Shown here: one piece after another, positions 7,238-24,240 of the stretch
Layout of the letters: each line of letters opens with the position of its first letter
Numbering within the stretch: the first letter of the stretch is position 1
Assembly: GCA_963757495.1 (NCBI GenBank)
Contig: CAVWRZ010000013.1
Coordinates: 9,281 to 73,280 of the forward strand
Direction of reading: 5' to 3'
DNA: 64,000 nucleotides
Origin: an uncultured Alphaproteobacteria bacterium
GTDB taxonomy: Bacteria; Pseudomonadota; Alphaproteobacteria; Rhodobacterales; Rhodobacteraceae
Notes under the pieces: model-generated
The model's input: the letters and a program-made list of their open reading frames with translations, nothing else
The model's database searches: none
What the model was told of the DNA's origin: nothing
Program-made: the position numbers and the translations under genes

Positions 7238-7800
7238 GGACCCATCGATCCGGTTGCGGCCGGAGCGACTGCCTGCTTCGAGGCCCCGAACTTCGGGGTT
7301 ATCGATGAGCGACGTGTACTGGCCGGGCGAAGTCCGGATGGCCCGGCTTCGGCCGTGCTTTTCCGGGAGCCTTGGAATGCCGCGCGTCGACGACAGGCGC
7401 GTCCTTGGGCGGAGTACGGTCATCGACCGCAACGGCTTGCGCTGGCGCGATGCGCCCCGGGGAGCACGGCCCGCACGAGACGCTCCATGACCGCTGGAAA
7501 CGGTGGAGCGACATGGGTGTCTTGGCCTGGATCACGACGGGGCCTGTCGCCGAGGACCCGAACGACGAGACGATCCCGATCGACGCCACCTGCCCCGAGG
7601 CGCATCGCACGGCCTCGAGCCTGCGGGCGAAAGAGGGGGGCGCGGTCGCCCGATCGGTCGGACGAAGGGCGGCCTGGACCCTTGCCCGGCAGGCGATGCC
7701 CGCATCACCCAGAGGAGCGAGGCTGCATGCCGTCACGGATGCGGTCGGACGGCCGATCCGGTTCCTCGTGACCGCCGGAGGAGTGAGCGACTAGACCGGG
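7238..7800 (+). mobile_element. IS5 family (IS427-like) transposase remnant, frameshifted and truncated
   Basis: MSDVYW...MPRVDDRRVL...RNGLRWRDAP, RWKRWSDMGV, IDAT..AHRTASSL, RTKGG...LHAVTD..GRPIRF spread over several frames. Confidence 0.8.
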
Positions 7801-7834
7801 GCAAGGCAAGCCTCCGGGCTGACCGCCCCTACTT

Positions 7835-8020
7835 GACGGCATTCCACGGCAGCGGGTCGTTGACGCGGGTGATCTTTCAGTCGGGGATGCGGGCGAGGGT
7901 CTCGGCGCGCCAGGCCTGCGGGTCGGTGCCGTCGAGCTTGGCGGTCTCGATGAGGGTGCAGGCGATGGCGGCGGCGCGGCCGCCGGTGAGCGGGCCTGCG
8001 AAGAGGTGGATGAGATGACC
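7835..8020 (-). mobile_element. IS66 family TnpC C-terminal remnant
   Basis: HLFAG..GGRAAAIACTLIETAKLDGTDPQAW...LARIPD followed by a stop and KITRVND.LPW. Confidence 0.75.
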
Positions 8021-8077
8021 GGTTCCATGGATGCGCAGGGCAATGCGAGGCTCGGGGCGTTCGAAAGGAGAACGCTC

Positions 8078-9480
8078 ATGCGGGATCTCGACGCCTACGT
8101 CGGTCTCGACGTGCACGAGGAAACGATCACGGGAGCCATCGCCGCGGCTGGACGAGAAGGTGAAGTGCGATCATGGGGAGCGATCCCCGACGAGCGCACG
8201 GCGATCGATCGAATGCCGGAAGAGGATGGCCGCGCGCCACCCGACGGCTTCGTCTGCATATGAAGCGGGGCCCTGCGGATACGGCCTTCACAGACATCTC
8301 GGTTCGAAGGGTATCGACTGCCGTGTGACGGCACCTTCGAAGATGCCGGTGACCGCGACGCATCGTCGACACAAGAACGACACCAAGGATGCGGTTGCGC
8401 TTGCGCGTCTTCACCGCGCCGGAGAGCTGACCTGCATCTGGACGCCCGACGAAGGACATGAGGCGATGCAGGATCTGGTCCGGGCCCGGCGGATCGCGTC
8501 CCACCAGGTCCGCAAGGCCCGGCAGCGGATCGGCTGCTGCCTTTCGAAGTACGGCCGCCGTTACGGGCGCAAACGATGGGGCCGGACACATCGGACGTGG
8601 CTTGCGGACCTTCGGTTTGCCCATGCGGCGCAGCAGTCCGCGTTGCAAGGCCATGTCATCGAAGGAGAGCAGGCCGTGGCCCGCCGCGCGCAGGTCGACG
8701 GACGGATCGAGGTGCTTGTGCCGGAGTGGCGCTCGGCGCCCGTGGTGCGAGACCTCGCCGCGCTGCGTGGCGCCAGCGTGGCAATCGCCTCCGCAGTGGC
8801 CGCCGAGGTGGGCGACTTCTCGCGCTTCGCCGGTGCCCGACAGCTCATGAGCTCCCTTCGGCCTCGTGCCGGGGGAATACTCCAGCGGCGGGACGACACG
8901 GGCGCGCGGCATCACGAAGGCAGGGTTCTCGGACGTTCGGGCCTTGCTGTCCGAGGCAGCGTGGCTCTACCGGCTGCGACCCGAAGTCGGACACTGGCAG
9001 CGGACCTGTCGGGGAGATCCGTCCCGAGCGGCGCAGGATATCGCCTGGAAGGCACGGCCGAGGCTGCATGGTCGATATCGCCGCCTGACCCGGACGCGCC
9101 GGAAGCGCAGCCCCAGGTCGCCGTCACCGCCGTGGCCCGTGAGCTGGTCGGCTTCATCCGGGCAATCGCCGGGAATGTGGAGGAAACCGCGATGGCGAAC
9201 CGACTGTCCGCACCGCCGCCGGATCATCACGCCGCCGGTGGTCCGTATGCAGGGCGTCGAGACCGGTCCGAGGAAATCCCCGGGCAAGAATCCGGAGCCG
9301 GTCGCCATGGCCGGATCCGCGCAGGTAGACCGGGGCCGCCCTCCATGCCGCATCATCATCATGGGGCCGAACAGGATCCCCGAACGAGAGTTCGAGCAAC
9401 CGTCGCGACGACCTCAGTGCCCTGCACCCGCCCATCGGCGAAGACCTTCGACGTTCCGACCACGTATCGGGCGACCGATC
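8078..9480 (+). mobile_element. IS110 family transposase pseudogene with ~280 bp downstream non-coding region
   Basis: AGGAG RBS plus ATG 8078; YVGLDVH, YEAGPCGYG, NDTKDA (DEDD core), EVGDFSRF, EYSSG, GITKAG and VTAVARELVGFI motifs; frameshifts near 8220-8250, 8860 and 9110. Confidence 0.85.
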
Positions 9481-9499
9481 GTCTGCGTTCATGGAGTCG

Positions 9500-10400
9500 A
9501 CGACGGTCATGAGGGTCACGAGGGTCCTGGGGTCCTTCCCACGGAGACGGAGCGCACGGCACGTTCGGCCGTGTCGTCGTCGTCGTCGTCGATCTCGAGG
9601 GAGGCGTGGTCGGGACAGGGCCGGAGCCGCCTCATGCGGGCCGGGGCGCAGCGGATCGCGACGGCGAGGGGCGGAGATGCCGGGAAGCCGGGCGTGGAGC
9701 CGCGCCTGGAGGTCGTCGAAGACAGGCGCGACATTCGCCTGCCGGATCCCCACCCGCCCGTCCGGCGGCGAGCCCCGCGCGTCCTTCTCGACCGCGTGGA
9801 GCTGCGCGATGCGCGCGATGGCCTCGTCCCCTGCCCGGCCGTGCAGGTCCGCATGCCCGGGAGGGGGGCATGGCCGACCCTCGCCCTGTGGACGGGGGGC
9901 CCTGTGGACGGGGGGCCCTGTGGACGGGGAGCCCTGTGGACGGGGAGCCCTGTGGCACCACCGGTCCGGGACCCGTGGCGAACGGACCTGCGGCGCACAT
10001 GCCGCGCCCGGCGGTCCATCGCGAGGCGATGTCACGGGAGGGGCCCTGCGTCCCGTCCTCCTCGACCGGCCCCCCGGACCGATCGATCGCTGCGCGCCCG
10101 TCTCCGGACCCTCGCGGATGTCGCCGGGGCGGGAGAGGTGCCCGAACCCGGCATGGCAGCGGGCAGGGTATCCGCGCGGCGATGCCCGCAAGGAGGGAGC
10201 CCCGCCGGCCCGGGCGCGCGGGCGAGCCCCGCGCGCCACGCAGCACGACGGGCGGGCGCGGAGCGATGCCGGCCGGCGGTGGGGAACCGCCCCGTTCGCC
10301 ATGGGTCTCGCACCGATGGCGACCACATGGCTCACCGCTCGTCCCGGCCGTACGCCCGGAGCCGCGCCGTCGCCGCCCTGCCGGTGCAGGGGGCCGCCAT
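9500..10400 (-). mobile_element. IS66 family TnpC central remnant, heavily interrupted by short inserts
   Basis: AHVRR, GSA..DEAIARIAQLHAVEKDARG, LEID...TAERAVR.V.VGR; (GTC)6 expansion at ~9573-9590. Confidence 0.7.
9884..9955 (+). repeat. Tandem repeat, 4.5 copies of a 16-bp unit CCCTGTGGACGGGG(G/A)G
   Basis: Units start at 9884, 9900, 9916, 9932 and 9948 (partial); no spacers between them. Confidence 0.95.
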
Positions 10401-10459
10401 CTTCACCGGGGTATCGTCCATTGCCCGGCGGGCGATCGCGCGGCGATCTGCCGAACGGG

Positions 10460-11491
10460 CGGCAGGGATCCTGCGCGGGTCGATGCGGCCACCGCACCGC
10501 GCGCCGTGCGCGAGTATCTCGACACCTTGGATGAGGCCGCCTTCGGCGCGGCCTCGGAGGTAGCGCCGAAGTTCACCTCCTTCTCGGATCCTGCCAGCCA
10601 GTGCCTCTCGGGACATTGCTGTGCAATGCCCTGACGGTAGTAGACCGCGGCGCGCAAGGGTGAGCCGATGGAGCGCCAATGGTCCGAGCGACATTGGCGA
10701 ACGCCTTCTTCGCCTATTCGACGCACTATCTGATCGATACCGACCACGCTATGATCGTCGATGTCGAGGCGACCCGGTCGATCAGACAGGCCGAAGTCGG
10801 ATCCGTCCGGACGATGCTGGACCGGGTCAGGGCCACGTTCGATCTGCATCCGGAGCGTATCATCGCGGACACGGCATATGGGTCCGGCCCGATGTTGGAC
10901 TGGCTGGTGGAGCGGAAGATCGCGCCGCATATCCCGGTCATTGACAAGGCAGGCCGCACGGACGGCACCTGGTCCCGAACCGACTTTGCGTGGGACGCGA
11001 AGAACAACCAATACGTTTACCCGGAAGGCGAACCTCTCAAGCAATTCCGCCGCAACTACTCGGACTCGAAACGCGGCCCGACTGACAAGGGTATCGCGAA
11101 ATATCGTCTGCCAGGCCTGCCCACCTAAGCCGAGGTGCTGTCCGAACGCAGATGCCCGCAAGATCACTCGCGAAGAGCACGAAGACGCCCGCCAGGTCGC
11201 CCGCGACATTTCAAGGCTGACTCGTACGTCACCTCGATGCGGCTCCGAAAGAAGGTCGAGATGCTCTTCGCCCATCTCAAGCGCATCCTGTGCCTGGGAC
11301 GACTCCGATCACGCGGACCGAACGGCGCAAACGACGAATTCCTCCTCGCTGCAACCGCCCAGAACCTCCGCAAACTGGCCAAGATGTTCCCCGCCCAGCA
11401 ACGGCCGAAGCAAGGCTGATATCAAAGGCGCTCGCGCCCCGTCGGCACGTCACTTTCTGCACAAGCAGCATGCCCTATTTTCCACAGGATC
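10460..11491 (+). mobile_element. IS1182 family transposase pseudogene (5'-truncated)
   Basis: APRAVREYLDTLDEAAFGAAS..PKFTS.SDPASQ, AFFAYS.HYLIDTDHA.IVDVEATRSIRQAEV, IADTAYGS, RKKVEMLFAHLKRIL.LGRLR.RGP.GA.DEFLLAATAQNLRKLAK. Confidence 0.88.
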
Positions 11492-11817
11492 GGCCGTTTT
11501 CTGCCCTTCCCGCTTTGTATCCAGTCTTCTCCAGCGAGCCTTCAAGGGAAGCTACCAAGGCTTCAATGCTATCGCGCTGGCTATCACCAAGGACAGCGCG
11601 GAGCCCATTTTCGTTGGAAATATTCTGCGTGCGGGTGTTGGCGTCGAAAAGAAGGCAGCGGCGGCCAATGCCAACAGGTCTCGGCCAATCCCACGAAACC
11701 TTGTTATTTCAATAGGTAGACTAGTGTTTTCCGATATTCAAAAAAATCTTTTGACAGGGGTGCGCAAGTAAAACCGCCGGCTTGCGCCCTCTTATGCCCC
11801 ATAGGCAGGAGGTCGTC

Positions 11818-11894
11818 TGGCGGGCCCAGAAGGATTCGAACCCTCGACCTGCCGATTAGAAGTCGGCTGCTCTATCCAGCTGAGCTATGGGCCC
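11818..11894 (-). tRNA. tRNA-Arg (anticodon UCU)
   Basis: Reverse complement GGGCCCATAGCTCAGCTGGATAGAGCAGCCGACTTCTAATCGGCAGGTCGAGGGTTCGAATCCTTCTGGGCCCGCCA folds as a cloverleaf; loop CTTCTAA, GTTCGAATC T-loop, encoded CCA. Confidence 0.97.
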
Positions 11895-11934
11895 CCGCCC
11901 CCGTGCATGCCGCGAACCTCCCCCCGGGCGCAAG

Positions 11935-13254
11935 TCACAGATGCCCGCCCACCAGCTCCGCCACGTCCACCCGCGCGCCCAGTCGCGACGCCAGCAGGAA
12001 CATGCCCCCTACCTTGCGCTGCAGGTAGAGCACGTCGATGGGCACCGGCGGCGGCACGAAGCCCGACCGCGCCAGCGCCTCCCCCTCCGCCTGCAACCGC
12101 ACGGGCAGGTCTGTGCCGGCGAAATCGAAGCCACCGGGCGCGCGCAGGGCGTCGAACACCATCTCCATCATCCGCTTCAGCTGTGCTCTGTGCCCGTCGC
12201 TCAGCGTCTCCGGCAGCATCCCCAGCCGCCCCGCCGCCGCCTCCGCCCCGCCCATGTCGCCGTCGAGCCCCGCACGCAACAGCCGTCGATACTCACCCGT
12301 CACCTCCACCGAAATCTCCCGCGTGGCCCCGAAGTCCAGCAGCACGATCCGCCCCGTTCCGGCCTGCCAGCGGTAGTTGGCGAAGTTCGGATCGGTTTGC
12401 ATCACGCCCCAGCCGAAGGCCTCGCGCAGCGTCAGGTCGATCAGGTCGCGCGCCACCCGGTCGCGCACTTCCTGCGCTTCCTCCGCCACCGCCTCGATCG
12501 GCGCACCCTCCAGATAGGTCATCGCCAGGATCTCGCCCGTCGACCAGTCCGGCTGCACCTGCGGCACCACGAACCGCGCATCCCCGTCCAGTAGCGCGCC
12601 GAACCGCGCCAGGCCCCGCGCCTCCGCCGCGTAATCCGTCTCCTCGTGCAGCTGCACCCGAGCCTGCTCCAGATACGGTGCCAGATCGAACCCCTTCGGC
12701 AGCAGCCCGGAGAGCCGGATCAGCGCTCCGACGTTCGCCACGTCGCTGTCGATGCTCGCCGCCACGCCCGGATATTGCACCTTGATGGCGAGGTCGCGCC
12801 CATCCCGCGTCCGCGCCCGGTGCACCTGCCCGATGCTCGCCGCCGCCATGGGCCGTACGTCGAAACTCTCGAAGCGCGTCAGCCATCCCGCGGGCCAGTT
12901 CGATGCCAGTACCTTCTTGAGCTGCGCCGGCGGCATCACATGCGCCCCGTCGCGCAGCCGCGCCATGATCCCCGTAAGCTCCGGCGGCAACAGGTCGCCC
13001 GTGTCCATCGACACCAGCTGCCCGATCTTCATCGCCGCCCCCCGCATCTGCGCGAGCTGCTCGGTCACGCGGGAGACGTTGGCCGGAGTCAGCAGCAGCC
13101 CGCGCAGGTCCGGCCGCTCGCCCCGCCCCAGCTGCCGCGCCCCGCCCAGCGCCATGCGCCCGGCGACGCCCGCGCCGAGCCCGCCCATACGCGCCAGACG
13201 GTTCAGCCGACCGGACGGGACGGCCAGCGCTCGCCGTTCGCGCTCGTCGCTCAT
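11935..13254 (-). CDS. ABC1/AarF/UbiB family atypical kinase
   Basis: MRGAAMKIGQ, AAASIGQVHRA, LAIKVQYPGV, ETDY, MQTDPNFANY and LLDFGA motifs. Confidence 0.9.
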   Translation of the reverse strand: MSDERERRALAVPSGRLNRLARMGGLGAGVAGRMALGGARQLGRGERPDLRGLLLTPANVSRVTEQLAQMRGAAMKIGQLVSMDTGDLLPPELTGIMARLRDGAHVMPPAQLKKVLASNWPAGWLTRFESFDVRPMAAASIGQVHRARTRDGRDLAIKVQYPGVAASIDSDVANVGALIRLSGLLPKGFDLAPYLEQARVQLHEETDYAAEARGLARFGALLDGDARFVVPQVQPDWSTGEILAMTYLEGAPIEAVAEEAQEVRDRVARDLIDLTLREAFGWGVMQTDPNFANYRWQAGTGRIVLLDFGATREISVEVTGEYRRLLRAGLDGDMGGAEAAAGRLGMLPETLSDGHRAQLKRMMEMVFDALRAPGGFDFAGTDLPVRLQAEGEALARSGFVPPPVPIDVLYLQRKVGGMFLLASRLGARVDVAELVGGHL

Positions 13255-13766
13255 TCGTAGAGGCGCAGGTCCGAGACGGCCACGTCGGCGTGGAACTCCC
13301 GCCCGATGGCGATGATCCCCAGCCGCCGCAGCCCGGCCGCGTCGAAACTCGCATCGGTCCGGTGCGGCTCCAGCTCGGAGAAGGGCACGCGGACGGTCGT
13401 CCATTCCGCGGGAGCCTCGAAGGAGTACCGGAAGCTCTGCCACGGCCGGGTCAGCACGTCCGTCCGCGCGCGCAGTTCGTAGGTCTCGCCGTTGCCGTGG
13501 ACGTCGAACGTCACGCCGGTGGCCGTCGTCGCATCCGCTCCCACGTCGAAGTTCATCTGCACGAACCCGCCGTCGTTCTTCAAAGAGACGTCGCCGGTCA
13601 GCCGCGTGGCCTCGCGCCCGTCCACGACCTCCCGGTCGATACGGCCGGTGGAGACGCCGCCCATCACGGTGTCGGCCTCGAAGCGCCAGTCGGGGGTCAG
13701 GGTCATCGCATCCTCCGCGAGGGCAGGTGTGGTCAGCAGCAGGCTCAGGATCGTGGCTTTCAACAT
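13251..13766 (-). CDS. CIA30/NDUFAF1 family protein with predicted signal peptide
   Basis: DTVMGGVSTG, GDVSLKNDGGFVQ, WTTVRVPFSEL motifs; N-terminal MLKATILSLLLTTPALA. Confidence 0.85.
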   Translation of the reverse strand: MLKATILSLLLTTPALAEDAMTLTPDWRFEADTVMGGVSTGRIDREVVDGREATRLTGDVSLKNDGGFVQMNFDVGADATTATGVTFDVHGNGETYELRARTDVLTRPWQSFRYSFEAPAEWTTVRVPFSELEPHRTDASFDAAGLRRLGIIAIGREFHADVAVSDLRLYE

Positions 13767-13848
13767 GGTTGGGGATCTAGCGCACCGCGACACCGCGCCC
13801 AGCCCGGCCGCGTTGCGGCCGCCCGGCGCAGCGCCTAAGCCGCGCCCC

Positions 13849-15027: not shown

Positions 15028-15160
15028 GTTGCGGCCAGACTGACGATACAAGCTAACCCTTCGAGTCCCAGGAATTTAACCTTTGACAGAGGATCCGGCC
15101 AACTCCGTCTCAAGATCCGGCCAGTCGATCTCCTATTCATTTTCGCAACGTGACAAGAAC

Positions 15161-15186
15161 AAAAAGGGCCCACCGAAGTGAGCCCT
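15161..15186 (-). terminator. Possible intrinsic terminator (minus strand) downstream of the IS1595 gene
   Basis: AAAAA-GGGCCCAC-CGAA-GTGAGCCC: imperfect hairpin with an A-tract on its left. Confidence 0.45.
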
Positions 15187-15227
15187 GAGGCGGGTTGATC
15201 ATTTTCTGGCTGATGACGAGAACCCGC

Positions 15228-17830
15228 TTATCCACAAGACGAAGCGGAGGCATTAGGCCAACGAAGCCCGTATTCCTTTGATCGGCGCATCTGCTTTCCG
15301 ACGGCCCCTCGAAGCAGGGACCGCGTCTGCATGACCACCGGGACCGGTTTCCAGATCGTCGTGGGATTTCCCGTTAGGTTCCCGAATTTCGTGGTCCATT
15401 GCATGTAGATCTCGCCTGCCGGATCGCGGTCGTTCCAGCGCCAGATGATCTCGTCGAGGTAGCGCTGGAGGTGCTTGCGGCCGAGATCGTGATAGACGCC
15501 GACCAATGCGCGGGCCATCTGCGAGATCACCGCCTCGGCCGTGTTCGCGTGAGCGCCAGTCTCGGGATTTGCGTATTCGTTCTGGCTCTGGATGACGGAT
15601 CGATGCGAGGCCATCGTCTTCCCGAAGCCGATGTAGCTCGTGCTTCCGTCCGACATCAGCCTTGTCGTCTGCGGATCGATCCATTCCTTGAGAACGGCCT
15701 CGAGAGCGGGCCCTTGATCGCCCGGAACGACTCTTGCGCGCGCCTGTCCGTCCCGTGAGGCGGCCACGAAGACGATCGGCTTCCCACTGCCCTTTCCCCT
15801 TGGATTATTGACTTCTGCAAGAGATTTCGGCGCACCGCCGATGAAGGCGTCGTCGGTCTCGACGATATCATCCAGCGGCAGCGGATCGCATGTGCTGGGC
15901 TCCGCCCGGTCGGCCCCTGACCGCTCCACTGGAGCGTTCACCGCATTGTGGACAGGGCCTCACTCCATCATCTCGCGTATGGCATGACCTATGTGGAGTG
16001 CCCCCCGTTTCACCGGACAGTCCGGCTGGGGTTGAGCGTTTCGCGGAACTCGGCGGGCGAGCGCATGCGGAGCGCGGAATGCGGATGGACGGTGTTGTAG
16101 TCTGTGATCCATCCGGCGACGAGATCGAGCACCGTGGCGGCGTCGGGCAAGGGCGTGACGCGGACGTAGTCGCGCTTGAGGGTCTTGACGAAGGACTCGC
16201 TCATTCCGTTGCTTTCGGGCGACCGGACCGGCGTGAGGCAGGGGGTGAGGCCGAGGGCCGTGGCGAAGTCGCGCTCGCCATCGTCCTCGGACCGATGGCG
16301 GACGACGGCTCGCCCTTGGCGGTGTAGCAGCTGCCGTTGTCCATTGCCCGGCAGGGTATCGCGCAGCGATGTCCCGAGAGGGGGACAGATGCTCGACCCG
16401 GTGCGGGGCGCGACCGGTGCCGAAGCGGCGCTCGACGGCGGCGAGCATCATGTCGCGGATGTCGGAGCCGGAGATGCCCGCGCCCGCCACCGCGACGTGG
16501 GCTGCGATCTCGCGGTCGAAGGCGTCGATGAGCGAGCCTTGTCCGCCATCGGTCCGAGAACGATGGTCGAGCGCGACGCGGACCTTCTCGCCGTTCCGAC
16601 AGGCGATCTCGAGGGCGTCGGAACACCGGCGCAGGTTCGATGCCATCACCGCGACGCGGCCGTCGTGGACACGGCCCTCGCGTCGTCCGGTGGAGCGCTC
16701 CAGCGTCAGACCATGCTGGCCGAGAATGCGCGAGCCACGCGCTTGCGGTTGACCGGTTCCAGTCCTGAAGCCCGCCGCTCCCGGTTCAGCAGCGCCGTGA
16801 GGCGGCGGTGGCCGTAGGTCGGACGCTGGTCGACGAGGCGGCGGATGGCCGGCAGCAGCTCGACGTCGGCGGTCTTGCGATAGGAGCCGCGAGGCTTCGA
16901 CGCCCCGGACGCCCGCACGTGGAGCTGGGACCGGCTCACCTCCAGGGCCTCCGGCGCACAGCGGCTCACCGGGGAACCGTCCCTGGGCGGCGACGGCAGA
17001 TGCCACGTCTGTTCTTTGCCCGTGCCTGGTCCAGCGCCTCGCGCAGGATCTCGTTCTCCATCGTCTTGCGGCCAGGCATGCGCTCCAGGGCGCGGACCTT
17101 GTCCTCGAGCTTGGCAGGCCTCGGACGCGCCCACCACCGGTTCGTTCGACCCCACGGCCATCGCTCCCCCCTCGTCCATGAGGCGCCGCCAACGGAACAG
17201 CAGGTTCGGAGCCACGCCGCCCGCGCCGCGCCACGGCGGAGACGGACTCCCCGGAACCGTTCGTCGGCTTACGCGGCCCCATAGGGGCCACGGTCCTCCT
17301 CACCCTCGATGATGCGCAGCGTCCGTTGCGCCGGCCAGTAGCGGCGTCCGGCAAGGCCGGTGATCACCTCGACACGGGGATGCGTCTCGCCCGGCATAAG
17401 CATGTCCTCAAGCACAGGCTCGAGCCTTCCATGATCATGCCGGACTGTCCGGTCGAAATGGGGGGCAGTCCACCATCTTCCACGCAGTCTTCTGGTTCAC
17501 CCCCGGCAGCCGTCCCATCACGACCAGCGAAATACCCTTGGATGACGTCAGCACGGGAAACATCGCGGTGATCCAGATCCGAAGGTCGAGTTTCGTAGCG
17601 TGAAGGGGCGTCTTCGTCGTGATCGTGAACTGGCCGCGGCATCCCGCTTCGCCACACTGGTAGAGCCCGGGTCGGGATGACTTCCCCGCCAACTTGATCG
17701 AACGAACACTCCCGCAATTCGGACGATACCGCCCGTCAGCCCAGATGAGGCCTTTAAGAAAGACGCGCGCGTGATGCCCGTTCGGCATCTTGCGCCACAC
17801 GTCCTGGATGGATCTGAACTCGTCGATCAC
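15228..17830 (-). mobile_element. IS1595 family transposase pseudogene, split by a nested IS3-family element
   Basis: N-part: zinc-ribbon-like LYQC..CRGQFT..TKTPLHATKL...TSSKGIS...NQKTAWKM; resumes after the insertion as GHAIREMM; C-part IVETDDAFIGG, LMSDG, H.SVI.S..EY, ANTAE, GVYH....KHLQRYLDE..WRWN. Confidence 0.85.
15994..17472 (-). mobile_element. IS3 family (IS2-group) insertion sequence, degenerate, with terminal inverted repeats
   Basis: IRs TGGACTGCCCCCCATTTCGACCGGACAGTCCGG (from 17472, minus) and TGGAGTGCCCCCCGTTTCACCGGACAGTCCGG (from 15994); OrfA VAPNLLFRWRRLM..GRKTMENEILREAL; OrfB YGHRRLTALLNR, IDAFDRE, DNGSCYTA, ESNGMSESFVKTLKRDY, YNTVHPHSALRMRSP. Confidence 0.92.
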
Positions 17831-18001
17831 GCCACATCTCGCCAGCAATGTGAGGGGACCGGCGATATTGGCTATCCTGGCCCAAAACGAAGCCGGCTCG
17901 CCATTTCCACGCAGAATTGCCAGAAGACATTCAAGAACCGTGAACAATTGGACCGTTATTTGTATCCGCTTCTTCTGCTGGATAAGCGGGAACGAAAACC
18001 A

Positions 18002-18700
18002 CTAGGGGATCGCGCTCCCCACGCCGTCCGGCCCCGATCTCACCGAGACAGCAGTCAGCCCGACTCTACCCGGCCGCCGGCTCATCCCGCACATCATGTC
18101 ATCACCAGGAATCCGAGAGACGAAGTCTGGCCGTCGTCCCGGAATTCCGGAGAACCGTCCCGGAAATTGGCGCAGCCGTGATGTCGGAAGACCCCGCTCT
18201 GCAAACCGGAAGATCCTCGATCCAAGTGAGAAACGCGTCAAGATGCCGACGCGAAAGACAACTTTCCGGACCGTACCGGGGTCCTCGACCGGTACGAGCG
18301 GCTTGAGCAGCCCCGCTCCATACAGGGACCGGACCCGGCCCTTCGAGTCACCGATGGCCTTCGGTACATCCTCGAGCAGTACGGCGTCGGCGAGATCAGC
18401 GCAGAAGGTTTCCATCTCCTCGGCCGGAAAGACCAATCTTCCACTCTCGGCGTCCGACGCTCCAGTCGGGACGAGGCCCAGTTTTCTGGAGAAGCCGGGA
18501 GAGGTGCCTGCGATCCATGCCGGTCTCAGCCGACAGTGTAACAATGGAATGAAACTTGCGCCGGATCATCTCGACCCCAAGACCCACTTCGCCGCCATCG
18601 ACGGCGGAGTGCTCGACGGTGTGGGCGCGAAGCACGTCCCGGATCGGACCCGGGTCGATCATGTTGGCCCCCCAGTCCAGCCCGTCGTAGAGCCGCCCGT
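18002..18700 (-). pseudogene. C-terminal fragment of a probable TniQ-family (Tn7/Tn5053-like) protein, truncated by an IS1182 remnant
   Basis: YGRLYDGL...DPGPIRDVLRAH...RRKFHSIVTLSAETGMDRRHLSRLL resembles C-terminal regions of alphaproteobacterial TniQ proteins as recalled; lower GC than flanks; N-terminal TniQ domain absent. Confidence 0.45.
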
Positions 18701-18744
18701 ACGTTGCAAGGGGGCCAGCCTGGACCGCCGTGGCCGTGGCGGCG

Positions 18745-19465
18745 GTGAGCCACGTCGGCTTCGGCCCGTGACGGACCTCGACGCGATCGATCATCGTCCG
18801 CGCGGTGCCGATCCCGGCCTGCCGGATGGACCGGGTCGCCTCCACGTCCACGATGACGGCGTCGTCGGGGTCGACGATGACGGCGTCTTCGGGGCCGACG
18901 AGGCAGTCGTGCGGGCAGGTGAACACCGCCGGACCCTTCCGGGCGGCCGTCTGTCGGCTGGCGGGACCCGGGTGCGACACGGACCTGGACCTGGGCCTGG
19001 GCTTGGGCCTGGGCCTGGCCGGGCCGGCCGCGCCGAACGCGTTCGCGCATTCTGTCGTGCCGATGGCGTTCATGCGCTCACCGTCGAGGGGCTCGAGAGA
19101 CCCGCGGACCGCGCGCGGTGCTTCATAGGGGTCGATGGCACCCGCATCCCACCTCGCCCGGGCGCTCGAGCTCGAGGCCTGTCCACGTCCGCCATCCCTC
19201 CCGGGACCTCGCTGGCGCAGGGCCCTGCCGGGCAATGGATCAGACTTGCATCGACGGCGAACCCGGCACCGCCGACCAGACCCTCCTCGATGCAGCGCGT
19301 CACGACGCCCCCGAAGAGCAGCCGCAGCAGATCGCCGTCGCGAAATCCTCCCCGCCCCCCGGAATCGAGCGAACCAGGAGACTTGCCCCATCGCAACAGG
19401 GACCTCTGCGACGAAATGGACCCAGAGCGACCGATGTCGCGATCCGCATGAATGGTCGCTTCCGG
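18745..19465 (-). mobile_element. IS1182 family remnant (copy 1), inverted relative to the copy at 22.5-24.2 kb
   Basis: FRDGDLLRLLFGGVVTRCIEEGLVGGAGFAVDASLI...IVDVEATRSIRQAGIGTARTMIDR; near-identical to the reverse complement of 22510-22670 plus 23015-23540. Confidence 0.85.
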
Positions 19466-19596
19466 GATGCTGAACGTCAGGCGGGCAACATCGCTGCGGC
19501 CGGCTCGTCCATAAGCATCGCCTTCATCCCGGCCGCGCGCGGCGGACCTGATCTCTATACGGAGACAGTGCCCATCTCCCGCCCACAGGCGGCATG

Positions 19597-21414
19597 TCAT
19601 CGGAGGATCGCGGGGCCGAGGATGGCGAAGAGGCCGAGTGCACCGAGCGCCGAGCGCCGCCAGATGGGGCCAGGCGCGATTACGGCGCGGCTTACTGCCA
19701 TGAGACCGCCTGCGAGGAGCACGAAAGCCACTGCCGCGGCACCCGGCTCTTCCGCAGCCCGCAGTATCGCGGGCTGGGCGATCATGCCGAGCGGAATGAG
19801 GTAGAGCCCGAGACCGAGCGCCATCGCGGTGAGCGCCACGCGCAGCCAGTTCTCGCCCACCATGCCCGCGGCGATGAAGACCGCACCGCAGACGGGGGGG
19901 GTTATGGTTGAGAGAAGCGCGAACCAGAAGACGAAGAGGTGCGCTTGAAGAGGCTCGAGACCGAGCCGCTCCAGGGCCGGGCCGGCGACGGAGATGCAGA
20001 TCACGTAGGCGGCCGTGGTGGGCACCTCCATCCCGAGGAGGAGGCAGGCAAGCGCGGTCAGCAGAAGCGCGGGCCAGAGCGAACCGCCCGAGCCCGCGAG
20101 GATGGCTGACGTCATCTTGATCCCAAGGCCTGTGATTCCGAGGACGCCGATCACGATCGATGCGCATAGGATGATCGCTCCGATCATCGCCACCTGCCGT
20201 CCCGCCGAGAGGCATGCGGCGGAGAGGCGTCCGGGGAAGCGGGCCAACGCAAGGCCCTGTCCGTCGAATGCGAGCAACGCGGTGCCCGCCGCGATGGCCG
20301 CGACGGCGGCGTATTGCGGCGTGAAGCCGGCGGCGAACATCATCGCCAGAAGGACGGTGAAGGGCACGAGGAAGAAGGCCGAGGTCACGATTACGTCGCG
20401 CCGCGCAGGCCGGTCGGCCTCGGCCAACCCTCTCAGATCGTGTCGGGCGGCGAAACCGTCGATGCCGGTCCATACCGCCCAGAAGTAGAGCAGCGCCGGC
20501 AGGATCGCGGCGGCCATGATACCGGTGTAGGGCACTCCCGTCAGCTCGACCATGACGAAGGCACCCGCGCCCATCAGGGGCGGCATGATCTGACCACCGG
20601 AGGACGCGACCGCCTCGACGGCCGCCGCGAGCCGTTTGGGGTATCCCAGACGCGTCATGGTCGGCAGCGTGACGGCACCGGTGGAGGCGACGTTGGCTGA
20701 CGCGCTCCCCGATATGGAGCCGAAGAGCGCCGAGGAGAGGACCGAGACCTTGGCCGCGCCGCCCCTGGCGCGCCCTGCCGCCGCGGCCGCGACATTCATG
20801 AAACCCGCTCCCGCTTCACCGGCGTTGAGGATCGCACCGAAGATGACGAAGATCGCCACGACCCCGACCGAAACACCCGTCAGAGAGCCCCATATTCCGC
20901 CCTCGGAGATGGTCAGCGTGCCGAGGAACGAAGCGAGCGGAAGGCCCGCGTGGCCGAACGTGCCGGGGATGTGCTGGCCCAGGAGACCGTAGGCGAGCGC
21001 TGCGGCAGCGACGGCCGGTAGCGGCCATCCGATCATCCGGCGCGCACCCTCCAGCACCAGCGCGAGGAGGAGGACCGCAAGTGCGACCTGACCCGGACCT
21101 TCGAGGAAACCGTACTGATTCCGCAAGGCGACATGGTTCCAGGCGATCCAGAGGCAGGCGGCGATGCCCCCGCCCGAAAGCGCATAGCCCGCCGTGGCCT
21201 GCGCCTGCGTCGTGGCCGCAGCGACGAAGACCCAAGGTAGCAGAAGCGCCATGTGCAACGGCCGCGCGACCAGGTTGGGCACGAGCCCGTAGAGGATCAG
21301 GCCCAGATGCGCCGCGACCGTCAGAGCGCCGAGTGCGACCCAAACGGCCCGTCGCCCACGGGGATCGGCGGGTGCGAGGGGCGCGGCGGGAACCGTTCGG
21401 AGGGGACTATCCAT
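19597..21414 (-). CDS. TRAP transporter fused permease (4TM/12TM fusion type)
   Basis: Many TM helices; AAKVSVLSSALFGSISGSASANV, EAVASSGGQIMPPLMGAGAF, LGMEVPTTAAY, ITPPV motifs. Confidence 0.92.
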   Translation of the reverse strand: MDSPLRTVPAAPLAPADPRGRRAVWVALGALTVAAHLGLILYGLVPNLVARPLHMALLLPWVFVAAATTQAQATAGYALSGGGIAACLWIAWNHVALRNQYGFLEGPGQVALAVLLLALVLEGARRMIGWPLPAVAAAALAYGLLGQHIPGTFGHAGLPLASFLGTLTISEGGIWGSLTGVSVGVVAIFVIFGAILNAGEAGAGFMNVAAAAAGRARGGAAKVSVLSSALFGSISGSASANVASTGAVTLPTMTRLGYPKRLAAAVEAVASSGGQIMPPLMGAGAFVMVELTGVPYTGIMAAAILPALLYFWAVWTGIDGFAARHDLRGLAEADRPARRDVIVTSAFFLVPFTVLLAMMFAAGFTPQYAAVAAIAAGTALLAFDGQGLALARFPGRLSAACLSAGRQVAMIGAIILCASIVIGVLGITGLGIKMTSAILAGSGGSLWPALLLTALACLLLGMEVPTTAAYVICISVAGPALERLGLEPLQAHLFVFWFALLSTITPPVCGAVFIAAGMVGENWLRVALTAMALGLGLYLIPLGMIAQPAILRAAEEPGAAAVAFVLLAGGLMAVSRAVIAPGPIWRRSALGALGLFAILGPAILR

Positions 21415-21468
21415 CTCGCTCGCCTGCGCGAAGGAGTGGCCGGGGCGAGCGCTGCCCCGGCGGCGCGA

Positions 21469-22413
21469 TCAATTGACCGGCACAGCCACGCCGATCTCTT
21501 CGTAGTAGCGCAGGGCACCGGGATGGACCTGCGTCGTCACGGCACCCATCATGTCGGGCGTCACGCCGTCCCACCACGCGGCCGATCCGCCAAGGGTCTC
21601 CTTGTTCTCCCAGAAGGCCTTGGTGAGGTCGTAGGCCGTATCGTCCGCCATCGCCGCGGTGGCGAACGCGACGACGGGCAACGAGGTCGTCACGACGTCC
21701 GTGTCCTGTCCCGCGTAGGTGCCGGCGGGGATGACGAGGCGGGTGCGCCCGGTCTCCTCGACCTGCGCGTCGGTCATCGACAGGATCGTCACGCCGGTCG
21801 AGGCGGCGGCCTCGATCACGTTCGGCGCGGGGTAGGAGCCGGCGGTCACGAACCCGTCGATCTGCCCGTTCTTGAGGGCGGCGACGGCATTCGACAGTTC
21901 CGCGTCCGCGACGTTCACGCTGTCGGCGACGCCGAAGAGGCCGAGGTACTTCTCGCCTTCGGTCGCGCCGAAGCTGCCGGAGCCGAGCAGGATCGTCTTG
22001 CCGGCCATGTCCTCGAAGGTCTCGATGCCACTGTCGGAACCGACGACGAAGTGCATCGTGAGCGACGGGATCGGAAAGAGCGCGCGGATGCCGTCGAACG
22101 CTTCGCTGCCCTTGTCCTCGAACGGACCGCTGGCGGATTGCGCGGCGGCGATCAGGGCCGGGGGGGTGGTGAAGACGTAGTCGGCCCCGCGCGCCCGCAC
22201 TTCCATGACGTTCTGAACGCTGCCCTGACTTTCCTCGACCGTGACGGCGGCAATGCCCTTGAGGGCTTCCGAAAGCTGGACGCCCATCTGGAAATAGGCG
22301 GTGCCGGCCTTGGCCGACTTGTAGGTGATCCGTTCCTGCGCGGCGGCGGGCAGCGCTATGGCGGCAAGTGCCGCGGCAGTGACTGCGGTTGCGATGGTGG
22401 CCCTGATGGTCAT
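21469..22413 (-). CDS. TAXI family TRAP solute-binding protein
   Basis: Signal peptide ending in AAA; ESQGSVQN, GSGSFG, ALKNGQIDG, HPGALRYYEE motifs; upstream of the fused permease. Confidence 0.9.
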   Translation of the reverse strand: MTIRATIATAVTAAALAAIALPAAAQERITYKSAKAGTAYFQMGVQLSEALKGIAAVTVEESQGSVQNVMEVRARGADYVFTTPPALIAAAQSASGPFEDKGSEAFDGIRALFPIPSLTMHFVVGSDSGIETFEDMAGKTILLGSGSFGATEGEKYLGLFGVADSVNVADAELSNAVAALKNGQIDGFVTAGSYPAPNVIEAAASTGVTILSMTDAQVEETGRTRLVIPAGTYAGQDTDVVTTSLPVVAFATAAMADDTAYDLTKAFWENKETLGGSAAWWDGVTPDMMGAVTTQVHPGALRYYEEIGVAVPVN

Positions 22414-22509
22414 GGCGTATTCTCCCTATTTGGGCCGACGGTGACAGCCAGGCCACCCATGTCAAGGTTTGGCCGCCGAGAAGATCGACACGCGGGAGTG
22501 AGCTGCGGG

Positions 22510-24240
22510 CCGTGGGATCACCGGAAGCGGCCATTCATGCGGATCGCGACATCGGTCGCTCTGGGCCCATTTCGTCGCAGAGGTCCCTGTTGCGATGGGG
22601 CAAGTCTCCTGGTTCGCTCGATTTCGGGGGGGGCGGGGAGGATTTCGCGGCGAGGGGCGGGCGGACGGCTCCGGCGACGCGGTTCCACGACTTCGATCCG
22701 GAGGCGCAGGTGCCGGGCGACCGTCCATTGCGTCGGGTCGGCCGGTTCCTCGACAGGGAGCGGATGCGCGCGCGGCCCGCACCGTTCCGGAAGCCACATC
22801 GGCCGCCCCTCGGTCGACCCCGGCGACCCCGGGCCGATCGTGCGGATGCTGCTGGCCGGATACCCGACGGGCATCCGCTCCGAGCGCCGGCGGTGCGACG
22901 AGGTGCATCCGAACCCGGCGCATCGGCGCATCGGACCGTCTCGGCCTCGACGGACGTGTCCCCGATCGCCCGACCGATCCGGAAATGCGGGCATGGGCCC
23001 CAGGTTCCGCGACGGCGATCTGCTGCGGCTGCTCTTCGGGGGCGTCGTGGACGCGCTGCATCGAGGAGGGTCTGGTCGGCGGTGCCGGGTTCGCCGTCGA
23101 TGCAAGTCTGATCCATTGCCCGGCAGGGCCCTGCGCCAGCGAGGTCCCGGGAGGGATGGCGGACGTGGACAGGCCTCGAGCTCGAGCGCCCGGGCGAGGT
23201 GGGATGCGGGTGCCATCGACCCCTATGAAGCACCGCGCGCGGCCCGCGGGTCTCTCGAGCCCCTCGACGGTGAGCGCATGAACGCCATCGGCACGACAGA
23301 ATGCGCGAACGCGTTCGGCGCGGCCGGCCCGGCCCAGGCCCAAGCCTAGGCCCAGGCCCAGGTCCAGGCCCGTGTCGCACCCGGGTCCCGCCAGCCGACA
23401 GACGGCCGCCCGGAAGGGTCCGGCGGTGTTCACCTGCCCGCACGACTGCCTCGTCGGCCCCGAAGACGCCGTCATCGTCGACCCCGACGACGCCGTCATC
23501 GTGGACGTGGAGGCGACCCGGTCCATCCGGCAGGCCGGGATCGTCCCCTTCGTTCCGGTTTTCCATTGCCCAACAGGACATCGCGTGCCGCGATGCCCCG
23601 AGAGGGGACAAGTCCAAGCGAACCGACGGCACCCGGTCGCGGTCGGACTTCGAGTGGGACGAGCAGAACGACCGCGACGTCTGCCCCGGAGGCCACGAGC
23701 TGCTTGGGTACCGGCGCAACCACTCCGATCCGACGACGGAAGGACCGTCGGCCGGGCGGCAGAAGTACCGGGCCCTCGCATCCGACTGCAGGGCGTGCCC
23801 GTCGAAGCTCCGCTGCTGCCCGAAGGCCGCCGCGAGGGACATCACCCGCGAGGAGCACGAGGACGTCCGGGGCGTCGCCCGGGAGTGCGTGGCCTCCGAG
23901 GTCTGCAGGAAGATCGCAGGCCCCGGGCGCAGACAGGTCGAGATGCTCTTGGGGCACCTCGCGCGCATCCTCGGGCTCGGCCGCCTGCGCTTGCGGGGGC
24001 CATGCGGTGCCGGGGACGAGTTCACCCTCGCCGCCACCGCCCGGAACCTCCGGACGCCCGCGAAGCTCAGGCCGCGGACGACCCCAGCGGCGGCCACGAG
24101 GTGATCCGAGAGGCCGGAAAGGGCGAAACGACCGACCTGGCCGGGCCCGGGCCCGAGGCCGAACCCGCGACGAGCCCCCAGATGGGCCAAACCACCGCCT
24201 CGAGCAGCCGACTTTCTTTACGAGATGGGCTTGAAGCAGA
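22510..24240 (+). mobile_element. IS1182 family transposase pseudogene (copy 2, near full length, degenerate)
   Basis: FHDFD.EA.VP.D, GRPSVDP...MLLAGY..GIRSERR.C.EVH, FRDGDLLR, DKSKRTDG..SRSDFEWDE, VEMLLGHL.RILGLGRLRLRGPCGAGDEF. Confidence 0.85.

Follow-up and report, generated by a model that had tools for sequence, protein, structure and literature searches.

A 41-nt hairpin element, very probably mobile, in the transposase genes of Rhodobacteraceae

IS200/IS605 elements and PATEs resemble the element described here in their seamless insertion 3' of a 3- to 5-nt motif and in the recognition of a hairpin on one strand, but PATEs have two distinct end hairpins over more than 100 nt and a cognate Y1 TnpA in the genome, and the 41-nt element has neither. 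Integron attC sites, the layout of which is well established, likewise fold as single strands with an outer stem, an unpaired central spacer, an inner stem that has one extrahelical base, and a loop of variable sequence, whereas the element lacks R' and R'' core sites, lies outside cassette arrays, and is itself the moving unit. The small dispersed repeats of cyanobacteria that Elhai et al. are said to have described in 2008 are reportedly hairpins of about 20 to 30 nt, apparently without target duplication, located inside other repeats and genes; to our knowledge, neither their enzyme nor any preference for transposase genes has been reported, and they are unrelated to the element in sequence and host.

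The IS91 family (IS91, IS801, and IS1294), which has Y2 HUH enzymes of the rolling-circle type, shares with the element the lack of target duplication, the short motif, and the subterminal palindrome. IS91 employs an HUH enzyme, generates no target site duplication, has a single subterminal palindrome at terIS, inserts next to a tetranucleotide (GTCC and GTCG included), and has a single-stranded circle as its inserted form (PMC13181058). The element differs in containing no gene and no oriIS-like end, in the extra inner hairpin within its loop, and in its target, which is RTC/G (a slash marks the insertion point) as opposed to CTTG or GTTC, and most element-bearing genomes have a dead Y2 gene or none. 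REPs and REPINs are also imperfect palindromes of 20 to 40 nt that occur in high copy numbers and are presumed to be single-stranded HUH substrates, and compensatory changes hold their stems paired (PMC8266576, PMC3733652). REPs lie outside genes, cluster around the RAYT (TnpA-REP) gene, and have a stem that directly bears a GTAG or CGTC tag, whereas the element sits within transposase genes, combines a CAYTG head with an internal loop, and is not accompanied by a RAYT. The CGTC-tagged REPs, which "apparently lack a dedicated transposase" (Di Nocera et al. 2013; PMC3733652), are like the element in being alphaproteobacterial and, in some cases, in lying inside genes (PMC3733652), and the 5' flank of the element is often CGTC or TGTC; however, their tag abuts an 8- to 9-bp stem that starts with AT and has a CCA tail (PMC3733652), whereas in the 41-nt element the RTC motif and the inner stem lie 12 conserved bases apart. 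A literature search found no published description of the 41-nt hairpin element.

The hairpin and its copies in the window

The element contains one hairpin, with no separate left- and right-end hairpins, and consists of a 5-nt head (CAYTG), a 3-bp outer stem (CCC with GGG), a 4-by-4 internal loop (GGCA opposite GAGA), a variable inner stem of 9 bp with one bulged T, and a GNA loop. Stem cells in the alignment are paired in 97.4% of cases, against 78.7% in shuffles, double changes occur at 11 of the 12 base pairs, and the covariation score (0.442 versus 0.111) was reached by none of 500 shuffles, with slid controls at or below 0.076; the nested fold also accounts for the covariation better than three small hairpins do. 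A stem that varies yet stays paired had been noted in the first-pass annotation, which proposed a covariation check, and the strong covariation of the nested hairpin bears this out; structural selection on the hairpin is supported. G·T mismatches outnumber A·C mismatches by 30 to 16, a weak excess as a strand signal.

A covariance model (CM) trained on 111 distinct copies of 41 nt was applied, with filters off, to the entire window, that is, the whole 64,000-nt stretch of DNA analyzed, with the following results.

16342-16382, plus strand: canonical 41-nt element (CM, 67.5 bits) in an IS3-family transposase gene on the minus strand; splits the catalytic S/DNG motif.
10419-10459, plus strand: 41-nt element of the GGC/GCC stem subtype (CM, 51.8 bits) with a degenerate 3' box (GAACGGG); better-preserved sister copies at C2:480992 and C4:50756.
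10002-10042, plus strand: diverged 41-nt element (CM, 35.3 bits, E 1.7e-5; nhmmer E 4.9e-5); 5' flank TG, not TC.
10604-10642, minus strand: copy within an IS1182-like remnant, decayed at its own 5' end (CTACCGTCAGGG) (CM, 43.6 bits; match at 10604-10637, model positions 7-40); sister copy at C1:21396.
19196-19237, minus strand: 42-nt element (CM, 45.2 bits), identical to the 23114 copy, within an IS1182-like end that is duplicated in inverted orientation.
23114-23155, plus strand: 42-nt element (CM, 45.2 bits), twin of the 19196 copy.
23564-23606, plus strand: 43-nt element with a stem one pair longer (CM, 40.7 bits) in a plus-strand DDE transposase gene of the IS1182/IS5 type; downstream flank matches DDE_Tnp_1_6 (2e-11); sister copy at C7:10110.
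7680-7717, plus strand: marginal 38-nt short variant (CM, 19.2 bits, E 0.044) flanked by GGL and RLHAV of an IS5-family transposase.
9829-9865, plus strand: candidate relative of 37 nt within an IS66 remnant, degenerate and not significant alone (CM E 0.4).

Seven of the ten copies listed in the first-pass annotation were recovered in place by the model; the one at 7680 is marginal, the one at 9829 is not significant, and the weak copy at about 10152-10197 is unsupported in the scan of the window. The 7680 variant is also present at C17:78364, which has an empty-site paralog at C6:73176-73305, and an IS5 homolog in G250 carries two independent insertions a few codons from the position of this variant. 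The 9829 candidate retains the two end boxes, and two further IS66 copies (C2:479953 and C4:51742) have it as well. From 24 to 64 kb, where the window has 40 kb of ordinary genes, the model found no confident copy.

Insertion sites, hosts, and spread

Five filled and empty paralog pairs within the genome set the junctions at RTC/41 nt/G, and IS3 orthologs in three other genera (G388, G256, and G365) are empty at the exact 16342 insertion point, which confirms the clean insertion without target site duplication that had been read from the window alone. Genome-wide, position -1 is C at 65 of 71 sites, -2 is T at 43, -3 is R at 56, and +1 is G at 48; the TC previously seen 5' of the element therefore holds beyond the window, the preferred insertion site is RTC/G, and RTC belongs to the target and not to the element. 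The GCCGTTGTC/G site was hit independently in the IS3 of the window, in that of G180, and in an IS481-like element. At the point in IS3 that corresponds to 16342, an independent variant of 39 nt is present in a fourth genus. Nested copies, in which the element has inserted into its own palindromic 5' box, are also present (empty form at C9:15330-15461). Removal of the 16342 copy in silico yields HLS/DNGSCYTAK and restores the frame of the rve domain, so that the restoration of host frames claimed in the first-pass annotation stands directly at this site; it was also seen at four IS481-like sites and in IS5 filled and empty pairs. The element has been active in the Jannaschia lineage since the IS copies were only 1 to 2% diverged.

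About 150 to 210 copies at 79 distinct sites, 70 of them within repeated (IS) DNA, are present in the Jannaschia genome, and the scan of related Rhodobacteraceae, suggested at the outset, returned many more: of 294 sampled genomes, 100 contain the family, which reaches 50 of 112 genera; it also occurs on 95 roseobacter plasmids, and most element-bearing genomes have 1 to 8 copies. About a dozen kinds of insertion sequence are affected. Nearly all annotatable sites are inside transposase or integrase genes, and the hosts represent at least 10 unrelated families (IS3, IS5, IS6, IS66, IS481, IS1182, IS91, IS200, Tn3, and phage-type integrase). We are confident that the family is a 41-nt nonautonomous mobile DNA element that inserts seamlessly, and the initial view of a mobile micro-element placed 3' of a short motif is upheld. 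That it is immobile on its own, being an ancestral IS segment or a sequence spread only by homologous recombination between IS copies, is highly improbable. Most copies do reside in multicopy IS elements, so that much of the copy number is due to IS amplification, all 212 copies fall into just 79 sites, and some identical insert sites are common to diverged IS lineages; but the variety of unrelated hosts, the nested insertions, and the presence of different stem variants at one site in different genera argue against such an origin, and the empty sites in orthologous and paralogous IS copies contradict it.

The host genes had been regarded as dead, which is only partly right, as one IS481-like element continued to transpose, at least eight times, while bearing four inserts. 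Its copies, at least eight in number, are 98.4 to 99.4% identical and have differing flanks and CTAG-like target ends; the assembly contains no close transposase homolog free of interruptions, the best intact relative being 33% identical; an open frame of 250 codons results once every insert is deleted in silico; two IS481-like lineages about 15% apart have insert sites in common and a dN/dS of 0.27; and G142 has three copies of an insert-bearing IS200-like element. These observations would suit inserts that are removable, by precise DNA excision or at the level of RNA or translation, with transposase expression restored as a result, and that serve as a switch or intron-like spacer in living hosts, a reading that we consider unlikely. 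Both insert orientations occur within one gene, which argues against RNA splicing or ribosome hopping, and matched take-off and landing codons are absent. The common inserts may postdate the lineage split; a nested pair is about 99% identical against 85% for its flanks, which suggests gene conversion, and the catalytic motif of lineage B has decayed from DNG to DEG. Moreover, an intact IS481-like master copy may have escaped an assembly that is 92% complete and interrupted at IS copies, and a transposase supplied in trans is the ordinary explanation.

Candidate enzymes

A Y1 transposase (IS200/IS605) or RAYT acting on a one-hairpin PATE- or REP-like derivative was the source of mobility originally proposed. 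Insertion 3' of a short motif, the lack of target site duplication, and the structured hairpin agree with this proposal, the geometry recalls the ends of IS608 fused onto a single hairpin, and two burst genomes (G142 and G273) contain Y1 genes. However, the Y1_Tnp profile (PF01797), which covers both IS200/IS605 TnpA and RAYT, has no match in the Jannaschia genome, above-threshold matches are absent from 33 of 34 genus genomes (subthreshold traces occur in the genus), none are present in burst genomes G250 and G076, and high-copy genomes are not enriched for Y1 (OR 2.6, P = 0.22). In Y1-rich G142, three IS200-like tnpA copies stop at profile position 108, where the element starts; they are hosts of the element and not its masters. 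Nor was any Y1 gene found with element halves at its flanks, an arrangement for which the first-pass annotation had advised a search. With Y1_Tnp absent, not enriched, and itself interrupted, the proposal is not supported and has a low probability.

The IS91 family fits better and is a better lead than IS200/IS605 or RAYT, but the link falls short of proof because the only Y2 gene of the Jannaschia genome is dead. At least nine genomes contain 2.55-kb integrase-plus-Y2 elements with an End A hairpin of the form CCATTG-CCGC-(GGCA or GAGA or other GNNA)-GCGG, directly behind which lies the gene for a Phage_integrase plus SAM_4 protein. The 41-nt element reads (C)CAYTG-CCC-GGCA-..-GAGA-GGG, and its first 16 bases nearly match this hairpin, the common layout of the IS91 Y2 left end and the element being CCAYTG-stem-GNNA-stem. 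Y2_Tnp was found in 7 of 12 genomes with at least 9 copies and in 30 of 283 others (OR 11.8, P = 1.4e-4; Tn3 control, OR of about 3.3), with a cutoff picked after the data were seen and related genomes that are not independent. Against Y2, 82 of the 100 element-bearing genomes lack it and 3 of the 12 high-copy genomes have no Y2 trace whatsoever; the fit to IS91 is further weakened by the missing oriIS end, by cut sites nearer the hairpin than in the IS91-like terminus, and by the insertions of the element in the genes of IS91, IS200, and integrases themselves. The claim that the window contains no cognate enzyme is supported, and no intact Y2 or Y1 gene was found in the Jannaschia genome, though some insertions look recent.

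The integrase beside Y2 is a candidate in its own right, as a tyrosine recombinase could act on the folded strand as integron integrase acts on attC. The outer stem, 4-by-4 spacer, inner stem with an extrahelical T, and variable loop are attC-like, and the IS91-like units carry their integrase directly behind the End A hairpin; but GTTRRRY and RYYYAAC core sites are absent, the junctions have no crossover sequence common to element ends and target, and a unit of 41 nt is too small to accommodate a cassette flanked by two sites. Integrase and Y2 are not distinguishable on the association data, and we think it improbable that the recombinase is responsible.

An HUH mechanism acting on single-stranded DNA is, by a narrow balance, probable, and its attribution to an IS91-type Y2 enzyme is tentative, at somewhat less than an even chance. 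The best overall explanation, taken as a whole, stands at about an even chance. The element would travel as folded single-stranded DNA, an HUH-type nuclease supplied in trans would cut on either side of the hairpin, and pasting would proceed via a small single-stranded circle. The likeliest source of the nuclease would be the integrase-plus-Y2 IS91-like elements of Rhodobacteraceae, the left-end (terIS-side) hairpin of which the element would copy; in the Jannaschia genome, the enzyme has apparently been lost, with a Y2 remnant, itself interrupted, remaining. Frame-breaking inserts would be tolerated in transposase and integrase genes, and riding inside IS elements and plasmids would be the sole route between genomes; together, these would account for the near confinement of the element to such genes, and the hitchhiking would explain why most genomes have 1 to 8 passenger copies without the enzyme. 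Selection alone may be insufficient as a cause of the near-total absence from intergenic DNA.

Copy number and structure of the element

Family A, a hairpin DNA insert of about 41 nt found in transposase genes, is mobile and non-autonomous: a structured 41-mer with seamless insertion at RTC|G that persists almost only within genes of other mobile elements; the family is real and far larger than the window suggests. A covariance model built from 111 distinct 41-nt copies was run with filters off over all 64 kb of the window, for which the first-pass annotation had reported about 10 copies. Seven of these were recovered exactly, at 35-68 bits, whereas the copy at 7680 was marginal, that at 9829 was not significant, and no copy was found near 10152.

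Family A copies in the window, scored with the covariance model
7680-7716, 38-nt short variant of family A, marginal (E 0.044)
9829-9865, weak candidate copy, not significant (E 0.4)
10002-10042, family A copy, in the 35-68 bit range
10419-10459, family A copy, in the 35-68 bit range
10604-10637, minus strand, family A copy, in the 35-68 bit range
16342-16382, family A copy, in the 35-68 bit range
19196-19237, minus strand, family A copy, in the 35-68 bit range
23114-23155, family A copy, in the 35-68 bit range
23564-23606, family A copy, in the 35-68 bit range

The model returned no confident copy to the right of 24 kb, a stretch of 40 kb occupied by ordinary genes, and no Rfam family matched the region. 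The first reading had made its case depend on the existence of copies elsewhere, and in the genome as a whole (3.28 Mb, 69% G+C, 17 contigs, the window being C13:9281-73280) nhmmer found 212 at an E value of ≤1e-3; the covariance model gave at least 149 (150 candidates scored). Together they represent 79 distinct sites of insertion; the element is most often 41 nt long (54/79), with 43 nt at eight sites, 42 nt at five, 40 nt at four, and a range of 37 to 49 nt. The consensus reads CAYTG CCC GGCA, a variable stem-loop, and T CCC GAGA GGG. Solo left or right halves, sought in this genome as signs of an autonomous version, proved to be decayed copies only.

The observation that the stem varies yet stays paired was upheld in a nested fold comprising an outer stem (6-8/39-41), a 4x4 internal loop (GGCA/GAGA), and an inner stem (13-21/25-34) with a bulged T at position 31 and a GNA loop, so that one hairpin spans the whole 41 nt. 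Among the 111 distinct copies, pairing in this fold was 97.4%, compared with 78.7% in shuffles, and changes on both sides were present in 11 of the 12 pairs, with linked changes at pairs 15/32 (GC to CG), 14/33 (GC to TA), and 6/41 (CG to AT). The covariation score was 0.442 versus 0.111, a value reached by none of 500 shuffles, and slid controls did not exceed 0.076. The minimum-energy fold of single copies consists of three small hairpins of unremarkable stability (z of -0.1 to -2.3), but this fold is contradicted by the covariation, which fits the nested form; the predicted structure is thus supported by comparison among copies and not by single-copy stability. The excess of G.T cells (30) over A.C cells (16) gives a weak hint that the plus strand is the one that folds.

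Insertion sites, host genes, and distribution

Clean insertion without target-site duplication, as proposed in the first-pass annotation, was confirmed by pairs of filled and empty IS paralogs within the genome and by empty IS3 orthologs in other genera. In the paralog pairs nothing is duplicated, and any deletion amounts to no more than a single ambiguous base.

Filled and empty IS paralogs in the genome under study (contig:position)
C17:78503 filled, C6:73205-73074 empty, ..GGCATC|41 nt|GATTGAG..
C17:78090 filled, C6:73535-73406 empty, ..CTTGTC|41 nt|GTATTTG..
C12:19888 versus C3:28844
C9:35344 versus C6:28226
C6:61341 versus C6:72885

At the window copy that starts at 16342, the IS3 orthologs of three other genera (genomes G388, G256, and G365) are empty at the identical position; since they are empty at the exact point, the segment is not one that intact relatives carry, a possibility that would have refuted the mobile reading. 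In a fourth genus (G180), another variant, of 39 nt, has inserted at that very phosphodiester bond. The TC noted immediately 5' of the element recurs in the flanks of 71 sites, with T at -2 in 43 and C at -1 in 65, and a purine at -3 in 56 and G at +1 in 48 extend the preferred site to RTC|G. Other copies of the element are also targets: their 5' box is near-palindromic and receives insertions at TGCC|GGGCA, which generate nested pairs; an un-nested form survives at C9:15330-15461. Guide-target pairing between the GGCA/GACA loop variant and a TGCC/TGTC target was rejected, as the variant does not track the target. A GC3-phase test of frame restoration applied to all 79 sites yielded only 11 confident calls, too few to be informative. 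The catalytic DNG codons of rve-type transposases (GCCGTTGTC|G on the element strand) form a repeated, independent landing hot spot that spans the IS3 and IS481 families and different genera.

Insertions at the DNG hot spot
Window 16341|16383, IS3
G180 L209:~1490, IS3
L159:961-1004, IS481-like

At 70 of the 79 sites in this genome at least one flank is repeated elsewhere and is therefore IS DNA, and three of the nine single-copy sites lie inside IS3 or Tn3 transposase genes. Some window flanks gave no Pfam match, probably because further inserts break their frames. In three other genera, eight of ten sampled sites fell in transposase or integrase genes, the hosts being IS3, IS5, IS66, IS6, an HTH (IS630-like) protein, and a phage-type integrase. 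The element lies in both orientations relative to the host gene, even within one IS481-like gene, which is evidence against an intron or a signal for ribosome hopping and sets it apart from introns and translational-bypass elements; hopping of the gene 60 type was also rejected when two sites, read by eye, proved to have no matched take-off and landing codons. Rickettsia palindromic elements are about 100-150 bp long and keep the frame of the host gene, whereas family A inserts are 37-49 nt long and break it. Unlike those of classical MITEs, the junctions show neither terminal inverted repeats nor target-site duplication, and the consensus differs from integron attC sites in having no R''/R' cores (RYYYAAC ... 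GTTRRRY, crossover G|TT).

A strict pattern gave 105 matches in this genome and one to eight in 14 of 24 members of the genus. When the order was sampled evenly, the pattern was detected in 100 of the 294 genomes from this family (50 of 112 genera) and in none of six genomes from a second family; a reversed-pattern control returned approximately zero. Carriers include Ruegeria, Leisingera, Sagittula, Sulfitobacter, Roseobacter, Pseudorhodobacter, Salipiger, and Thioclava, and 95 plasmids in PLSDB bear the element, among them pDSHI04 of Dinoroseobacter shibae. Bursts are evident in two other genomes, G142 (at least 105 copies by covariance model) and G250 (48 by pattern), and in the genome under study. 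The literature that could be searched yielded no account of this repeat. If our description holds, the element is among the smallest structured mobile DNAs known, and it is unusual in residing almost wholly inside other mobile elements, a parasite of parasites that is spread over 50 or more genera of the roseobacter group, plasmids included. It would shape IS decay, or perhaps IS restraint, in these genomes and would explain many "frameshifted transposase" pseudogenes, which could be classified after repair in silico.

In G250, convergent pairs of elements about 44 nt apart occur in IS5 and IS3 genes (L133:1498-1620, L138, and L139), and at L139 the second element of the pair coincides with a large internal deletion in the IS3 gene; these arrangements suggest recombination between elements.

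Candidate mobilizing enzymes

Mobilization in trans by a Y1 enzyme, either the TnpA of IS200/IS605 or a RAYT, had been suggested from the sequence of the window, and like PATE and other Y1 HUH systems the element inserts 3' of a short motif (RTC|G) with no target-site duplication. We reject these enzymes as the mobilizer, as searches of the genome, the genus, and the burst genomes all stand against them. No match to Y1_Tnp (PF01797) was found in this genome, and hence no RAYT flanked by repeats; matches across the genus were below threshold, and neither of the burst genomes G250 and G076 contained the domain. Nor was it enriched in high-copy genomes, being present in 2 of 12 compared with 20 of 283 others (odds ratio, 2.6; P = 0.22). 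A Y1 gene sharing the hairpin of the element was also sought, but the Y1 loci of G142 and G273 have none of its ends, and three of these loci are interrupted by it. In the latter, three IS200-like tnpA copies of G142, the match to the Pfam profile ends at position 108 of 121, with the element starting 4 nt farther on, so that it has evidently invaded an HUH transposase gene; the interrupted IS is still present as three copies.

Interrupted IS200-like Y1 genes in G142
C1:436639-437006
C1:3626453-3626820
C1:3701035-3701402

The known Y1 systems also differ from family A in organization. PATEs have separate left and right subterminal hairpins, in contrast to the one nested hairpin seen here, and a cognate Y1 transposase sharing the ends was not found in this genome. 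REP sequences have a GTAG/CGTC tag directly 5' of the palindrome, whereas the head of the element is CAYTGCCCGGCA and RTC is no tag of this type because it belongs to the target. REPs are, moreover, extragenic, unlike an element with 70 of 79 sites in repeated IS DNA and three more in IS3 or Tn3 genes.

Genes for Y2_Tnp, the HUH transposase of the IS91 type, are present in G142, G250, G273, and G076, and occur in 7 of 12 genomes with at least nine copies, a cutoff set after the counts were seen, compared with 30 of 283 others (odds ratio, 11.8; P = 1.4e-4). The Tn3 transposase, a control of similar frequency, gave 3 of 12 versus 26 of 283 (odds ratio, approximately 3.3); it replaced ISL3, which was useless for this purpose because hardly any of these genomes carry that family. 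The IS91-like elements are 2.55 kb long and comprise a tyrosine recombinase gene followed by a zinc finger Y2 transposase gene. Their upstream (terIS-side) end, End A, bears a conserved hairpin antisense to the genes, CCATTG-CCGC-loop-GCGG-CTTMGTCC, in which the loop varies by genome (GAGA, GGCA, GCGA, GATA, or GGA). The family A element together with the target C reads CCAYTG-CCC-GGCA-...-GAGA-GGG, and its first 16 bases are identical to those of End A with the GGCA loop save for one extra stem base pair. As a sequence similarity, the layout of CCAYTG, a GC stem, GNNA, and a GC stem is common to the head of the element and to End A of IS91-like elements from at least nine genomes.

IS91 is moved by an HUH enzyme without target duplication, inserts beside the tetranucleotide CTTG, GTTC, or GTCC (rarely GTCG or CTCG), has one subterminal palindrome, at terIS, and is inserted in the form of a bottom-strand single-stranded circle (PMC13181058). 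Family A likewise makes no target-site duplication and seems, to judge by its sequence, to have the single subterminal palindrome of the terIS type, but its RTC|G overlaps CTTG/GTTC/GTCC only partly. Given these published traits and the shared hairpin head, the element looks like a miniature mimic of End A. Single-strand cut-and-paste of the HUH type would best fit its movement, with the IS91-like integrase and Y2 elements as the best current candidate for the source of the enzyme. The case is incomplete because this genome has no End A hairpin and only a dead Y2 gene, its sole IS91 remnant and itself interrupted by the element; because 82 of 100 carrier genomes are without Y2 and three high-copy genomes show zero trace of it; because the element has no oriIS-like part, nothing in it resembling the oriIS end (End B); and because the high-copy cutoff was chosen post hoc. 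Whether the enzyme is HUH-type or other, the element is a concrete and very short substrate for studying seamless single-strand DNA cut-and-paste. At L176:2904-2932 of G142, the IS91-like elements lie head to tail, oriIS end directly against the End A hairpin of the following copy.

Interrupted elements and neighboring features

An IS481-like element of 1,222 bp (C3:5594-6815; L159:195-1416) contains four family A inserts, one of them nested, and an extra hairpin insert of about 40 nt and of another kind after the RTIKE codons. At least eight copies, 98.4-99.4% identical, are found in different flanks with CTAG-like junctions, which indicates that the element transposed, at least eight times, after it had acquired its inserts. 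Removal of the family A inserts in silico leaves an open frame of 250 codons with HTH and rve signatures; no uninterrupted close homolog of this transposase was found in the assembly, the best intact relative being 33% identical. That an IS with four inserts went on transposing is a puzzle, since the assembly contains no intact gene for its transposase. A master copy may have provided the enzyme in trans and yet be missing from the assembly, which is 92% complete and breaks at IS copies. A second IS481-like lineage, about 15% diverged, has three of the insert sites in common; dN/dS between the lineages is 0.27, and lineage B shows decay in its catalytic motifs. The split may predate the inserts, which may have spread by gene conversion, as the nested pair is about 99% identical inside flanks that are 85% identical. 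Because interrupted ISs continue to transpose and retain an open frame under selection, we also considered that the hairpins are removable and not lethal, acting as reversible "DNA introns" or as switches that gate transposase expression, a reading that we regard as improbable. Removable inserts might promote their own spread, help the IS to persist, or benefit the host, and the DNG hot spot could then reflect targeting and not chance. A type B IS481-like element (C17:34783-36194) is interrupted by other short inserts, of 35 and 74 nt, in which GGTCCGAGGACG motifs occur.

Several neighboring features of the window were recorded.

Other features of the window
8031-9512, plus strand, long ORF starting MRDLDAYVGLDVHEE, between the copies at 7680 and 9829
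9876-9946, about five 14-nt tandem units (GGGGCCCTGTGGAC and variants) in an IS66 remnant, between two reported copies
10662-10703, plus strand, 42-nt member of a second insert family, starting GAGCCGATGGAGCGCC and ending CATTGGCGAACG
11821-11894, minus strand, tRNA gene (Rfam, 70 bits) bordering the IS-rich block
19100-19240 versus 23100-23230, inverted duplication of an IS1182-like end, bracketing a segment of about 4 kb

The ORF at 8031-9512 looks like an IS110-family (DEDD) transposase; IS110 elements target hairpin repeats, and a link with family A is therefore conceivable. The tRNA gene may indicate where the island integrated. Both arms of the inverted duplication carry the same 42-nt element. 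The 42-nt variant of the second insert family has four copies in the genome (that in the window, C1:21330, C4:49529, and C8:19718), one of which adjoins the dead IS91 Y2 gene.
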